From an uncultured archaeon (GTDB taxonomy: Archaea > Asgardarchaeota > Jordiarchaeia > Jordiarchaeales > Jordiarchaeaceae): a stretch of DNA of 5,321 bases. A program made the position numbers and the translations under genes. Shown here one piece after another: positions 727-5,167 of this stretch (positions are counted from its first letter, which is position 1; the number at the start of each line of letters is the position of its first letter). The DNA lies in NCBI GenBank assembly GCA_964510585.1, contig CAZECW010000133.1, positions 1 through 5,321 on the forward strand, read 5' to 3'. The notes beneath the pieces were generated by a model. That model was given only the letters and a program-made list of their open reading frames with translations, was not told where the DNA came from and did not search any database.

Positions 727-3456
727 ATGATCGCATTGGAAAAAGAACCTACATGGCACACGATGAGTATTGAGAGTGTTGAGGCTGCTTTAAAAACTGG
801 GCGGTCGGGCATCACCCCTGAAGAGGCTAAACGCAGATTGGAGGAATTTGGCCCAAATATTTTGAGGGAAAAGAAGGGGCCCTCTGCTTTAATGATTTTC
901 GCGTCGCAATTTAAAAACTACTTGATTCTAGTTCTTGTTGCCGCCGCAATTATTGCACTTTTCCTGGGCGACTTCACTGATGCTTTAGTGATTACAATTG
1001 TAATCATTTTAAATGCCCTCTTAGGTTTTTTCCAGGAATATAGAGCTGAAAAATCAATAGAAGCTCTCAAAAAACTAACAGCGCCCCACGCAATTGTGAT
1101 ACGTGGAGGGCATCAAGAAGAAATATTAGCCAGCGAATTGGTTCCCGGAGACTTGGTGCTGATCGAAACCGGAGAACGTGTACCAGCAGACATTCGCCTT
1201 TTAGAATCCGCCAGCCTTGAAATAGACGAAGCCATATTAACAGGGGAATCAATCCCCGCTAAAAAGAAGGCTGAGCGCTTAAAGGAAAAAAGACTCCCTC
1301 TTGCTGATAGGAAAAATATGGCTTTTATGGGCACCCTCATAACTAGAGGGAGGGGAAATGGGTATGTAGTGTCTACTGGTATGAGAACAGAAATAGGAAA
1401 AATAGCGGAGCTAATTCAAACCGTTGAAACAGAAGAAACCCCTCTACAGGTTAAATTGAAGGATTTGGCTAAAAAATTAACTTACGCTGTTATAGTCATA
1501 TGTTTAATTGTCTTCATTACGGGAACTCTGAGAGAGGGACATATTTTTGATATGTTTCTTAACGCTGTTGGTCTTGCTGTAGCAGCCATACCCGAAAGCC
1601 TGCCTGCGGTAGTTACTATCACTCTCGCTCTTGGGGTTCAGAGGATGGCTAAGAGGAATGCCGTTATAAGAAAACTTCCTGCAGTGCAAACTCTTGGGAG
1701 CGCGACAATCATCTGTTCCGACAAGACGGGAACCTTTACTCGGAACGAGATGACTGTACGAAAATTATATGCTAATAATAGTACCTTTGAGGTAACTAAT
1801 GTTGGTTACGAACCTAAAGGCAAGTTCTATCACAATAATTCAGTAATTGATCCAAAACAAATTCCAAGTCTTAAACTACTATTGACCATTGGTGCGCTCT
1901 GTAACAATGCAAAATTAGAGAAGAATGGCAACTGGCACGTAATTGGCGATCCAACTGAAGGAGCACTCATCGTTGCAGCGGAAAAGGCTGGAATCAAGCA
2001 AGAAGAAATTGCTAAAGAATTCCCACGCATTGGGGAATTACCCTTTGAGTCCGAAAGAAAAATTATGTCCACTATCCATAAAACCCCCCTAGGAAAAAAG
2101 GTTGCATACGTTAAAGGTGCTCCAGAGGTCATTTTGAATCTGAGCAGTAGTATTTACTCAGATGGAAATGTAAGGGAGCTAAGTGTGGACGAAAAGGAGG
2201 AAATTTTAAAAATCAATCAAGAAATGGCAGGCAACGCGTTACGAGTTTTAGCAATGGCCTATAAAGAATTACCTGACGAGGAACAAGAATATACACCAGA
2301 AAATGTTGAAAAAAATCTGATTTTTGTGGGTTTCGAAGCTATGTTGGATCCTCCCCGAGAAGAAGCCATATCCGCTGTTCAGAAAACCAAAAAGGCAGGC
2401 ATCAAAGTGGTTATGATTACTGGAGACAATGAATTCACCGCTAGGGCTATAGCAAAAGAGTTAGGGCTTCTCGAGGGAGACAGCAAAGTAGTTACTGGAG
2501 CAGAATTAGATAGTATGAGTGACGCTGATCTTGATAATATAATTCAAGATGTGGCAGTTTTCGCCCGCGTCTCCCCAGAACACAAGCTTAGAATAGTTAA
2601 CTCCCTAAAAAAGAAAAATCACATAGTGGCCATGACCGGCGATGGAGTCAATGATGCACCCGCCCTCAGAAAAGCAGATATTGGAGTCGCGATGGGAATC
2701 ACGGGAACGGATGTCGCTAAAGAAGCATCAGAGATGATTCTTACCGATGACAATTTCGCCTCCAGCGTAGCCGCAATAGAGGAAGGACGCGTAATCTATT
2801 ATAATATTAAGAAGACCATATACTATCTTCTATCCACCAATGTAGGAGAAATACTAACCATATTCATAGGATTAATCATCGGGCTACCCATACCTGTGAT
2901 TGCCGTTCAAATCCTCTGGATTAACCTTGTTACTGACAGTTTTCCCGCCCTAGCTCTTTCCGTAGATCCACCAGAGGAGGATGTTATGCTTCGACCCCCA
3001 AGAGATCCCCAAGAACCTGTTATAACTAGAAGAATGTTTTACAATATGATTATCGTAGGTGTAGTTATGTGTGTGTCCACTCTCCTTGTATTTAGTTTTG
3101 CCTTGGGAGTATTCTCCCCCATAGGAATTTCCTACTCTAATTTGGACAAAGCGAGAACCATAGCGTTCACAAATCTGGTCTTTCTCCAACTCTTTAATGC
3201 CCTTAACACCCGCTCAAGGCGAGAATCATTGTTTAAAATTGGGTTCTTTTCTAACAAGTATCTCGTGTTGGGAATAATAATTTCTGTAATTCTCCAATTA
3301 GCAGTAGTTTATCTCCCCCCTCTTCAAACATTATTCCACACCGTAGCATTATCTCTCCTCGAAATAGTAACAATACTCCTTGTTTCAAGTACCATTCTAT
3401 TCGGCGCTGAGATAATGAAGTTCTTTGAACGAAGAGGTGCTCAACATAAAAAATAA
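727..3456 (+). CDS. Cation-transporting P-type ATPase, type IIA (SERCA-like, probable Ca2+-ATPase), 909 aa
   Basis: Motifs in the correct order: TGES (1240-1251), M4 VAAIPESLP (E290), phosphorylation site CSDKTGT (D332, 1720-1722), KGAPE (2113-2127), MLDPPR, ITGDN (2416-2430) and TGDGVNDAPAL (2635-2667). Also M5 STNVGE (N705/E708), M6 WINLVTD (N733/T736/D737) and about 10 hydrophobic segments. The M4/M5/M6 residues match the SERCA Ca2+-binding residues. The true start may be TTG at 736. Confidence 0.95.
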   Translation: MIALEKEPTWHTMSIESVEAALKTGRSGITPEEAKRRLEEFGPNILREKKGPSALMIFASQFKNYLILVLVAAAIIALFLGDFTDALVITIVIILNALLGFFQEYRAEKSIEALKKLTAPHAIVIRGGHQEEILASELVPGDLVLIETGERVPADIRLLESASLEIDEAILTGESIPAKKKAERLKEKRLPLADRKNMAFMGTLITRGRGNGYVVSTGMRTEIGKIAELIQTVETEETPLQVKLKDLAKKLTYAVIVICLIVFITGTLREGHIFDMFLNAVGLAVAAIPESLPAVVTITLALGVQRMAKRNAVIRKLPAVQTLGSATIICSDKTGTFTRNEMTVRKLYANNSTFEVTNVGYEPKGKFYHNNSVIDPKQIPSLKLLLTIGALCNNAKLEKNGNWHVIGDPTEGALIVAAEKAGIKQEEIAKEFPRIGELPFESERKIMSTIHKTPLGKKVAYVKGAPEVILNLSSSIYSDGNVRELSVDEKEEILKINQEMAGNALRVLAMAYKELPDEEQEYTPENVEKNLIFVGFEAMLDPPREEAISAVQKTKKAGIKVVMITGDNEFTARAIAKELGLLEGDSKVVTGAELDSMSDADLDNIIQDVAVFARVSPEHKLRIVNSLKKKNHIVAMTGDGVNDAPALRKADIGVAMGITGTDVAKEASEMILTDDNFASSVAAIEEGRVIYYNIKKTIYYLLSTNVGEILTIFIGLIIGLPIPVIAVQILWINLVTDSFPALALSVDPPEEDVMLRPPRDPQEPVITRRMFYNMIIVGVVMCVSTLLVFSFALGVFSPIGISYSNLDKARTIAFTNLVFLQLFNALNTRSRRESLFKIGFFSNKYLVLGIIISVILQLAVVYLPPLQTLFHTVALSLLEIVTILLVSSTILFGAEIMKFFERRGAQHKK

Positions 3457-3492: not shown

Positions 3493-4728
3493 TTACACCT
3501 TTTTATAAATGTTTTTTGCTGAGTATTTTGCGCTAGACATTTCTCTATCAATTATACTCAGAAGAAGAATACGCTTGTATGTGGGAGGATGTGTGGAAAA
3601 TAGGTTGTTCAAACTGTTCCACTTTGTTCTCTTAGCCTCGGCTTCCATCGCTATTTCGAGCTCCTTTTCATCAAGAGTTCCGTCTTTATCTAGATCGTAT
3701 TCGTTTGCCCTTTCCACGATACGACGAATTTGGCTTGATGCATTTGCTGGGTCTTCGATAAAGAAGGCTCGTGCACCATGGGTTTCGGCGGGATTCAAAC
3801 TGAGTCCGTAGGCTATTTTTGTGAGGGCGCTTTTTAGTGCTCTGGGGTTTTCAGTGACGTACGCCGAGTAGGCATCGGAGTAGAATTCTCTCTGTCTACT
3901 TAAAGTTCTGACTATCAAAAGTGTTATAATGTATATTATGAATGCTAAAATTGCTATTATGAGAAGAATCGCGAAACTTTTTCCGCTGCGTTTTGAGCCC
4001 CTCGTACCGTAGAATGCAAACATGGCAACCATATAACATACGAGAGGTATGGCGGCCAGGCAAGTCATTATCAGACAGTCTTTATGTTTCAGGTGTCCTA
4101 TTTCGTGTCCAATTACTGCTTCTATTTCCTCCTTATTCAGCGTTTGTAGTAGTCCCTTAGAAACTGCTAGGGTGGCGCTTTTCGTAGTTCTTCCAAATAC
4201 ACATGCATTTGGCTGCTCAGTATTCCATATCGCTATCTTAGGTGTTGGTATCGCGCTTTTTTCGGCTAACCTATTTACCGTTTCTTCAAGCCAAGGGTTA
4301 GAACCCTTTCTTATATACTGCAGGCCTAAAGACTTACTTACCACGGCGGGGCCGATTGCCCACTGAAACAATATGAAAAACAACGTGAAAATTGACACGC
4401 CTATAGCCATAGGCGTGATGCTCTGAGGAAGCACAAGCTTGATGAACAAATATGATTGCGTCTGCAAAGCTACTAGGTACTCCCACGCAAAATACGAGAC
4501 GAAAGCTTGCAAAAATGTAGTAGGGTCGATTGATTCCCAATCTATGTAGAAATAGCTTGAGAGATCCTCCGAATACCCTAAAGGTGAGCCCCCTAAGAGC
4601 ATCGGAAGAGTATCACTGAGCAAATATGTCACTAGAACACTTAAGGCAAAAATGAAGACAAAGAGAACCACGAACATCAATACGATTGACACCGACATTC
4701 TGGCTTTCAGCATAAATAAACGTCCCAA
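3493..4728 (-). CDS. htpX: HtpX-like membrane zinc metalloprotease (peptidase family M48), 411 aa, with EF-hand loop
   Basis: Two N-terminal TM helices, then PKIAIWNTEQPNACVFG (PNAF-like motif), EEIEAVIGHEIGH (HEXXH, H208-H212, 4093-4107), two more TM helices, SRQREFYSD (third Zn ligand E281, 3886-3888), PRALKSALTKI and FSTHPP (H380). The TTG start is preceded by GAGGTGA at 6-nt spacing. Confidence 0.93.
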   Translation of the reverse strand: MGRLFMLKARMSVSIVLMFVVLFVFIFALSVLVTYLLSDTLPMLLGGSPLGYSEDLSSYFYIDWESIDPTTFLQAFVSYFAWEYLVALQTQSYLFIKLVLPQSITPMAIGVSIFTLFFILFQWAIGPAVVSKSLGLQYIRKGSNPWLEETVNRLAEKSAIPTPKIAIWNTEQPNACVFGRTTKSATLAVSKGLLQTLNKEEIEAVIGHEIGHLKHKDCLIMTCLAAIPLVCYMVAMFAFYGTRGSKRSGKSFAILLIIAILAFIIYIITLLIVRTLSRQREFYSDAYSAYVTENPRALKSALTKIAYGLSLNPAETHGARAFFIEDPANASSQIRRIVERANEYDLDKDGTLDEKELEIAMEAEAKRTKWNSLNNLFSTHPPTYKRILLLSIIDREMSSAKYSAKNIYKKV

Positions 4729-4734
4729 GAATGG

Positions 4735-4741
4735 TCACCTC
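4735..4741 (-). promoter_or_regulatory. Shine-Dalgarno site (GAGGTGA) of htpX
   Basis: The minus strand reads GAGGTGA-CCATTC-TTG. GAGGTGA is complementary to the 16S rRNA 3' anti-SD (UCACCUC) and supports the TTG start at 4728. Confidence 0.8.
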
Positions 4742-4768
4742 ACTTGCTTTTAGAAGAATTTTCTCAGT

Positions 4769-4776
4769 AATATATA
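4769..4776 (-). promoter_or_regulatory. Putative archaeal TATA box of htpX (TATATATT)
   Basis: First T is 48 nt upstream of the TTG, which would place a TSS near 4748 and leave a short leader containing the SD. The region is AT-rich, so chance is possible. Confidence 0.45.
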
Positions 4777-5062
4777 TTCTATGCTGCTTAAAATTAACTT
4801 TACTCTTAATCACAAAAAACCCTATACACTATAAAAAAATGTTTTATTATTTAATTTTCTCTATTAGTTAAAAATAATTAAAAATGATACTATTCTTTTC
4901 CAAACAATAGAAACTCCTTCAAAACTGAGCATTAGTGACCTTAGTTTAAACATATTTTTCGCATATTTTTGAATTATTTAGTGGGAGTTATGAAGCTATC
5001 CTTATCGGGCCCTGATTTTTGGGGGAAAAGCTGTCAGGCAGGCGGAAAACGCAACAGCCCAA

Positions 5063-5167
5063 TCAAACGCACCAAGAAAAGCATAATAAACTAAATAACC
5101 TCGCAGAATCTTGCGAAATATCGGTTGAAACACACATTCTTGATTTTAACTTTGTCAGTCTTCCCAA
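5063..5167 (-). pseudogene. Remnant or short paralogous copy of the htpX 5' end (34-aa ORF MGRLTKLKSRMCVSTDISQDSARLFSLLCFSWCV)
   Basis: TTG start at 5167. The first 14 codons are 10/14 identical in amino acids to the N-terminus of the 3493-4728 protease (MGRLFMLKARMSVS) and 27/42 identical in nucleotides. GGAGG at 5181-5177 lies 9 nt upstream. Similarity is lost after codon 14; stop TGA at 5065-5063. Confidence 0.65.

Follow-up and report, generated by a model that had tools for sequence, protein, structure and literature searches.

An EF-hand-type insert next to the predicted plug of HtpX-type M48 proteases in Jordarchaeia and other archaea

Introduction

The HtpX protease of Escherichia coli is an M48B inner-membrane quality-control enzyme, and HtpX-type proteases are presumed to share a common role in degrading misfolded membrane proteins. 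Here we describe an HtpX-type M48 zinc metalloprotease of 411 residues from an Asgard archaeon of the Jordarchaeia that contains a canonical EF-hand loop. Its gene lies on a contig (C133) of 5,321 bp from a genome of 3.78 Mb with 96% completeness, and this whole stretch of DNA is referred to below as the window. An initial reading of the sequence (the original prediction) had proposed a Ca2+-regulated quality-control protease bearing an EF-hand of a kind not known in E. coli HtpX, and the E. coli protein indeed has no match to the PROSITE EF-hand pattern PS00018. The archaeal and E. coli enzymes are alike in that the HEXXH motif, the third zinc ligand of the E-x3-D type and the HPX4R motif are aligned, and both have four hydrophobic segments and the fold of HtpX homologues. 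They differ in how far the histidine of HPX4R lies from the third ligand, which is 54 residues in E. coli HtpX but 99 residues in the archaeal protein, where the extra part holds the EF-hand, and in a 67-residue acidic loop between transmembrane segments 1 and 2 (TM1 and TM2) by which the archaeal protein is further distinguished.

E. coli BepA shares with the archaeal protein the HPX4R plug motif, a latch aspartate four residues past the third ligand and a short helix before the plug histidine, but it is a soluble periplasmic enzyme with a tetratricopeptide repeat (TPR) domain, has neither an EF-hand nor a PS00018 match, and has 45 residues separating its third ligand from the plug histidine. 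The HPX4R motif is M48-wide, and in latent BepA its histidine (H246) is the fourth zinc ligand, within a plug that spans R234–P249, from 12 residues before this histidine to 3 after it and including helix alpha9, and that is latched by D205 (third ligand +4) and R252; the plug-release signal of BepA was, as the preprint states, unknown before that study (bioRxiv 10.64898/2026.07.01.735768). The BepA plug is freed by movement of the alpha6-lid at the BAM complex, and we found no report of a plug-release signal for HtpX-type enzymes.

The loop in the archaeal protease is of the type found in calmodulin and centrin, with which it shares a length of 12 residues, ligands at positions 1, 3, 5, 7, 9 and 12, a glycine at position 6, a hydrophobic residue at position 8 and flanking helices, whereas the 411-residue protein has one hand within an enzyme rather than a pair, and no partner hand was identified. 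Proteases in which cytosolic EF-hands couple Ca2+ to activity include the calpains and Drosophila Rhomboid-4, the latter a membrane protease, but these are Cys and Ser proteases of unrelated folds whose EF-hands are separate domains or extensions rather than elements beside a zinc-blocking plug. The same linear motif also occurs in Dx[DN]xDG loops that are not EF-hands, and these too are inserted in enzyme folds, with a precedent in an archaeal protease (PMC3123361), but in HtpX the context is helix-loop-helix and probably cytoplasmic, with the motif occurring very commonly among the archaeal enzymes. The survey by Rigden et al. (2011) does not list M48 proteases, and it reports archaeal cases to be rare and most of all its examples to be extracytoplasmic (PMC3123361).

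Results

An insert of 40–45 residues between E281 and the HPX4R motif (H380–R386) of the Jordarchaeia protease is predicted, from its sequence and an AlphaFold2 model, to be an EF-hand-type helix-loop-helix that is under selection. The 12-residue loop DLDKDGTLDEKE has D at positions 1, 3, 5 and 9, T at position 7 as a backbone ligand and E at position 12, with G at 6 and L at 8, and together with L357 it matches every one of the 13 positions of PS00018. The helix-loop-helix assignment is taken solely from the AlphaFold2 secondary structure, which runs from a helix at 327–344 through the loop at 345–353 to a helix at 354–367 and a further helix at 369–376, with block-mean predicted local distance difference test (pLDDT) scores of 96 for residues 341–350 and 90 for residues 351–360. 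The original prediction had described a PS00018-type loop at D345–E356 between helix-like flanks, and its coordinates, residue numbers and flanks all proved correct, with both flanks modeled as helices. When a profile of the insert (49 positions) was compared with all PDB sequences, calmodulins and centrin were the top matches (whole-sequence E value 1.2e-18), and single EF-hand stretches of calmodulin scored ~22 bits (E ~1e-3) with the entering helix, loop and exiting helix all aligned, profile positions 8–38 covering the calmodulin EF-hands and positions 8–20 corresponding to the entering helix. Fold searches with the whole model returned M48 proteins only, as the insert is too small to determine what is matched, and the EF-hand fold could not be confirmed in that way.

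PS00018 is known for false positives, and shuffling leads one to expect ~1 chance match in a proteome of this size, so that the loop might be a fortuitous match of a permissive pattern to an acidic stretch. The pattern appeared, however, in 71 of 200,000 composition-preserving shuffles of the HtpX protein (~3.6e-4), and its only two matches in the genome (5,934 stop-to-stop open reading frames of at least 100 aa, 1.38 million residues) are both in HtpX paralogues, the 411-residue protein and one encoded on contig C171, at homologous positions. The loop is also found at a fixed place in 150 of 269 proteins (the retrieved homologues and the window's own) and in 119 of the 120 members of the C171-type subfamily, which comprises Jordarchaeia and ANME-1/Methanomicrobia proteins of ~50% identity. 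A chance match was therefore rejected on the basis of the fixed position, the conservation, the paralogue match and the profile match to calmodulin, and we regard it as extremely improbable.

Conservation of the loop follows the pattern expected of its ligands. In an alignment of 32 close and mid-distance homologues from Jordarchaeia and Bathyarchaeia/Thermoproteota, there is no variation at D345, D349, G350, D353, E354, E356 and L357, and D347 is kept in 90% or more, and among the 150 pattern-bearing sequences loop positions 1, 3, 5, 6, 8, 9 and 12 are nearly fixed, with Glu at position 12 in 149, whereas positions 4 and 11 accept K, H, R and other residues. In the alignment that the original prediction had called for, positions 1, 3, 5, 6, 9 and 12 are thus invariant or nearly so across the clade. 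Across 82 loops from 80 loci both synonymous codons are freely used at each ligand, and all four at the Gly, while the residues stay constant, and hence the ligands appear to be under purifying selection. Another possibility is that the helix-loop-helix is now metal-free and acts in protein-protein contacts or substrate docking, which would agree with the common occurrence of insert-bearing HtpX proteins that have no Ca2+ ligands and with a Pfam EF-hand score that is under threshold in the 411-residue protein. Yet the ligands, G6 and the hydrophobic residue at position 8 are near-invariant in hundreds of sequences in which positions 4 and 11 are variable, a pattern specific to metal coordination, and losses of the motif within the EF-hand clade are few (2 of 64 tree rows), all of which makes a docking role improbable. 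We consider it highly probable that this archaeal HtpX contains a real, selected EF-hand-type metal site.

The protein that carries the loop is predicted from its sequence to be an intact HtpX-type M48 protease, with catalytic and plug residues present and zinc-dependent proteolysis as its expected activity. Its closest database proteins, at 90% and 77% identity, are named Candidatus Jordarchaeaceae and Jordarchaeum, and the TTG start is supported because the residues MGRLF preceding M6 are kept in its orthologues. Pfam Peptidase_M48 (PF01435) covers residues 144–388 (3.8e-35; 121.8 bits versus a gathering score of 20.3). None of the NCBIfam HtpX equivalog cut-offs (PRK02391, PRK01265 and others) is reached, the best HtpX model giving 188 bits versus a cut-off of 341 and PRK01265 giving 137.7 versus 275, and the protein is for this reason classed as HtpX-like M48 and not as the equivalog of a named model. 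The zinc ligands and catalytic residue H208, E209 and H212 are invariant (n = 114), as are E281 and D285. The AlphaFold2 model, built from a 114-sequence alignment, has a mean pLDDT of 89.4, and Foldseek matched it with a probability of 1.00 to ~30 Swiss-Prot HtpX homologues and to Ste24/ZMPSTE24. The features of the window are listed in Table 1.

Table 1. Features of the window, numbered from its first nucleotide, with residues of the encoded protein where applicable.
Feature	Positions	Strand	Residues	Basis or remark
htpX-type M48 zinc metalloprotease gene	3493–4728	-	411 aa	Open reading frame; TTG start; stop codon counted in
TM1–TM2 loop	4417–4617	-	38–104	
HEIGH, HEXXH zinc-binding/catalytic motif	4093–4107	-	208–212	Translation
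H3–H4 loop	3976–4011	-	240–251	
EFYSD, with third zinc ligand E281 and with D285, putative equivalents of BepA E201 and D205	3874–3888	-	E281, D285	Motif position
EF-hand entering helix	3697–3750	-	327–344	AlphaFold2; DSSP helices 327–339 and 341–344
EF-hand loop DLDKDGTLDEKE	3661–3696	-	345–356	Translation
EF-hand exiting helix	3628–3669	-	354–367	AlphaFold2 helix; L357, A360 and M361 invariant
Short helix KWNSLNNL, at the place of the BepA alpha9 plug helix	3601–3624	-	369–376	AlphaFold2; motif position
HPPTYKR, M48 HPX4R motif	3571–3591	-	H380, P381, R386	Motif mapping
P2A-type Ca2+-ATPase gene	727–3456	+	909 aa	NCBIfam; convergent, 36 bp from htpX
Match to the end and spacer of the L005 paralogue	4732–4957			
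Tandem htpX paralogue remnant	4958–5167	-		
First 14 codons of the remnant, LGRLTKLKSRMCVS	5126–5167	-		

The position of the insert relative to the plug was mapped from BepA by motif position, with one regular expression returning E201, D205, H246 and R252 in BepA and E281, D285, H380, P381 and R386 in the Jordarchaeia protein. A direct MAFFT alignment with BepA was tried and dropped for this mapping, since the TPR domain causes the BepA HPX4R motif to be misplaced in it. In the alignments there is little or no variation at H380 and P381, and R386 is kept in 90% or more. The original prediction had placed the loop after E281, the third zinc ligand, and before H380 of an STHP motif, and these residue positions hold; identifying STHP with the HPX4R motif, the core of the autoinhibitory plug, makes the mechanism more specific than that of a Ca2+-regulated protease in general. 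In the AlphaFold2 model the exiting helix is separated by one residue from the short helix at the place of the plug helix, and H380 is 35 residues past D345, the first aspartate of the loop. This spacing is 34–35 residues in 141 of 147 members of the subfamily of the 411-residue protein and, for the second (C171-type) subfamily, 34 residues in 111 of its 117 members. The gap between RAF and STHPP (alignment A2) is ~28 residues in bacterial-type HtpX, 45–75 residues in many archaeal proteins without Ca2+ ligands and 67–68 residues in the EF-hand clade.

Hydropathy analysis gives four hydrophobic segments in the protein. The N-terminus has three K/R and no acidic residues, the TM1–TM2 loop has one K/R and seven D/E in its 67 residues and the catalytic part is K/R-rich, and by the positive-inside rule the catalytic domain is therefore probably cytoplasmic, in agreement with reports on HtpX (PMC9263693). 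The EF-hand cannot be separated from E281 by the membrane and is consequently also predicted to be cytoplasmic, which is where the original prediction had presumed it to be. The H3/H4 region, between HEXXH and the third ligand, matches the BepA alpha6-lid in position. The TM1–TM2 loop is acidic, aromatic-rich and presumably extracellular; it is limited to the orthologue group of the 411-residue protein and is absent in the tandem paralogues and in Bathyarchaeia HtpX, and model confidence is lower within it (block-mean pLDDT 58–60 for residues 41–60).

A scan of genome contigs yielded 413 confirmed relatives among the pattern matches, and the loci described here are the best 80 of these, with 8 from Jordarchaeia and the remainder mainly from Bathyarchaeia. 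More distant HtpX proteins with the motif occur in the Thermoplasmatota and in one Chloroflexota bacterium. From these sequences, the EF-hand insert is evidently a fixed element of a large, mostly archaeal HtpX clade that extends over Jordarchaeia, Bathyarchaeia, Thermoplasmatota, ANME-1 and a few Chloroflexota. The second paralogue of the same genome (C171, 7304–8134 on the + strand, corresponding to 1378–2343 of locus L002) is a protein of 321 aa that is 37% identical to the 411-residue protein and has the loop DLNRDGKLDAYEV. Among 301 Asgard genomes, the insert profile at E < 1e-17 matched 5 of 5 genomes in family f1, 3 of 5 in f2, 4 of 4 in f3 and 3 of 19 in f12, and there was no strong match in the sampled genomes of the large families f5, f7, f9 and f21, with f9 giving one weak match (E 5.3e-4). 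The insert is thus patchy within the Asgard archaea and is not an Asgard-eukaryote signature, and its distribution gives no pointer to a special link with eukaryotic Ca2+ signaling. Copy number varies within the genus to which the window belongs, as genome G028 has five insert-profile matches whereas in the closed genome G038 the second paralogue's weak match is the only one.

In a phylogenetic tree made without the insert columns and with no root position set, insert-bearing HtpX proteins form one group of 104 rows with a support of 100. Most of the EF-hand-bearing proteins fall in a single cluster of 64 rows (Shimodaira-Hasegawa-like approximate likelihood ratio test, SH-aLRT, 93) that includes the two apparent losses, and a small Chloroflexota-type EF-hand group is separate from it. 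The EF-hand label changes at least 6 times on the tree versus 37 times in shuffles, and the unrooted topology may fit either one gain followed by losses or two gains of the loop. Three distant metagenomic relatives of 346–356 aa (P0134, P0135 and P0155) have tandem EF loops ~21 residues apart in an insert of 88 residues, versus 67, and P0134 (35.2 bits) and P0155 (30.1 bits) pass the Pfam EF-hand_1 gathering score of 25.4. In the model of P0134 the first hand is a helix-loop-helix, and the second has low pLDDT (51–69) with no loop bridge seen. A separate protein, P0353 (374 aa, from a 2,781-bp contig of the European Nucleotide Archive), matches the C171-type HtpX at 86% identity across 57% of the query and also has precomputed protein-kinase Pfam domains (PF07714 and PF00069) plus PF13240, and could represent either a fusion or an assembly chimera.

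The gene convergent with htpX in the window encodes a Ca2+ pump that exceeds the cut-offs of both TIGR01522 (PMR1-type, 836 versus 798 bits) and TIGR01116 (SERCA-type, 756 versus 703 bits). The pump adjoins HtpX in 6 of the 8 Jordarchaeia loci and in two genomes of f2, the sister family of f1 (both are Jordarchaeia), and some of the conserved pairs are only 47–54% (HtpX) and 53–56% (ATPase) identical to those of the window. No pump is beside HtpX at the loci examined in families f3 and f12, nor at the Bathyarchaeia loci, one of which (L083) has a related ATPase ~4.4 kb away. These data suggest that the association of HtpX with the pump is limited to the window's own order.

On the other side of htpX, the region at the end of the window contains a remnant of a tandem htpX paralogue, of which the first 14 codons, with the bases upstream of them, correspond to where a 365-aa paralogue begins in a 90%-identical relative (L005, 4693–5787). 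The adjoining bases match the end of that paralogue and the spacer, and 167 nt stand here in place of ~1,043 nt of gene body. Judged by this comparison, the region is a deletion scar and holds no hidden gene.

Discussion

We tentatively propose, with confidence a little short of even, that Ca2+ occupancy of the EF-hand sets the position of the plug and hence the activity of the protease. The proposal is made because the exiting helix runs into the plug helix and because the spacing from the loop to the plug histidine is fixed. Ca2+ would be bound by D345, D347, D349, the carbonyl of T351, D353 and E356, the bound ion would fix the angle between the two EF-hand helices, this angle would set where the plug histidine stands with respect to the catalytic zinc, and the protease would thereby be controlled by cytoplasmic Ca2+, with activation and inhibition both being possible. 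Metal binding, cytoplasmic location and coupling to the plug are all properties that we infer for this enzyme.

Ca2+ sites are known to stabilize thermolysin-like and subtilisin-like proteases, and Mg2+ is expected to be far more abundant in the cytoplasm than free Ca2+. The loop might, then, constantly hold Ca2+ or Mg2+ and stabilize or fold the C-terminal catalytic part with no switch, a reading that is only slightly less probable than the first. It agrees with the strong conservation of the loop, which suits structural and regulatory roles equally, with the insert-bearing relatives that have no ligands, in which the helices would have a scaffold role of their own, and with the source of several of the metagenome bins, which may be hot springs, judging from isolate names alone. 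On the other hand, Glu at position 12 of an EF-hand is a bidentate ligand of the Ca2+ type, Asp at that position being linked with a preference for Mg2+, and Glu is what nearly all of these loops contain. The fixed spacing of 34–35 residues to the plug histidine would also be unneeded for stability alone. Dx[DN]xDG sites do often serve stability or folding, as in the insertion of a thermophilic archaeal subtilisin (PMC3123361). Free Ca2+ is generally very low in the prokaryotic cytoplasm, in the nanomolar range as reported for bacteria (PMC5615198), and with a cytoplasmic domain a lone EF-hand would then be mostly unoccupied. Overall, structural and regulatory roles for the bound ion, whether Ca2+ or Mg2+ in the structural case, have roughly equal likelihood.

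Several observations weigh against a Ca2+-controlled plug. A lone, unpaired EF-hand is usually a weak Ca2+ binder, and the 411-residue protein, whose hand might pair by dimerization as the original prediction had suggested, has a single PS00018 loop, in which the monomer model has no beta-bridge. Of the two Pfam domains anticipated in the original prediction only Peptidase_M48 was recovered, the EF-hand_1 score being 18.1 bits for the whole protein (E 0.0018) and 20.8 bits for its C-terminal piece, both under the gathering score. Many archaeal HtpX proteins have an insert of comparable length with no Ca2+ ligands, and the insert must therefore have a role that is independent of Ca2+. The H3–H4 loop, with four K/R and no acidic residues among its 12, sits poorly with a simple four-span topology, which would place it outside. 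Regulation by a plug is established in BepA and is extended to HtpX only by analogy. As for the pump, its adjacency to htpX is found in one order and the two genes are arranged tail to tail, and it may therefore be inherited synteny, while the neighbors of HtpX in Bathyarchaeia, in the 80-locus search, include no Ca2+-related partner and are unrelated housekeeping genes, the commonest, each at no more than 34 of the 80 loci, being asparagine-synthase-like, CbiZ, CN-hydrolase, MoCF, ThyX and F420 ligase genes.

The most extended form of the proposal, in which a cytoplasmic Ca2+ switch moves the HPX4R plug, the clade represents the first Ca2+-gated M48 proteases and a direct read-out of archaeal intracellular Ca2+ signaling, and the Jordarchaeia enzyme is functionally tied to the pump, is unlikely. 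If it were true, the tie between HtpX and the pump in Jordarchaeia could involve, for example, turnover of the pump or clearance of membrane proteins under Ca2+ overload.

The observation behind the original prediction is confirmed, while its interpretation as a Ca2+-regulated protease is partly supported. It had also considered that the fusion might already be annotated, and this is so to a degree: EF-hand_5 (PF13202) is precomputed on some ANME-1 relatives and in one ESM-Atlas HtpX cluster EF-hand_5 is on 77% of the members, and the architecture is therefore already present in automatic annotation. A literature search found no paper that joins HtpX or M48 with an EF-hand; the one paper in which both words occur, a study of insect honeydew proteomics (PMC7564128), looks unrelated. 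The combination of an M48 protease with an EF-hand is hence widespread, partly flagged by automatic annotation and apparently unstudied.

A canonical EF-hand that is one residue away from the plug helix, in hundreds of archaeal species, leads to a hypothesis that can be tested with mutants, and nature provides controls in the relatives that have the insert minus the Ca2+ ligands and in those that have tandem hands. The finding bears on the view that Dx[DN]xDG and EF-hand sites of archaea are rare and for the most part extracytoplasmic (PMC3123361). This Asgard genome has just two canonical loops, both of them in HtpX proteases. The hypothesis addresses two questions, namely what signal releases the plug and whether Ca2+ serves as a messenger in archaea, where its intracellular messenger role is, to our knowledge, largely untested. 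The archaeal EF-hand HtpX is thus a testable candidate for a Ca2+-controlled protease.

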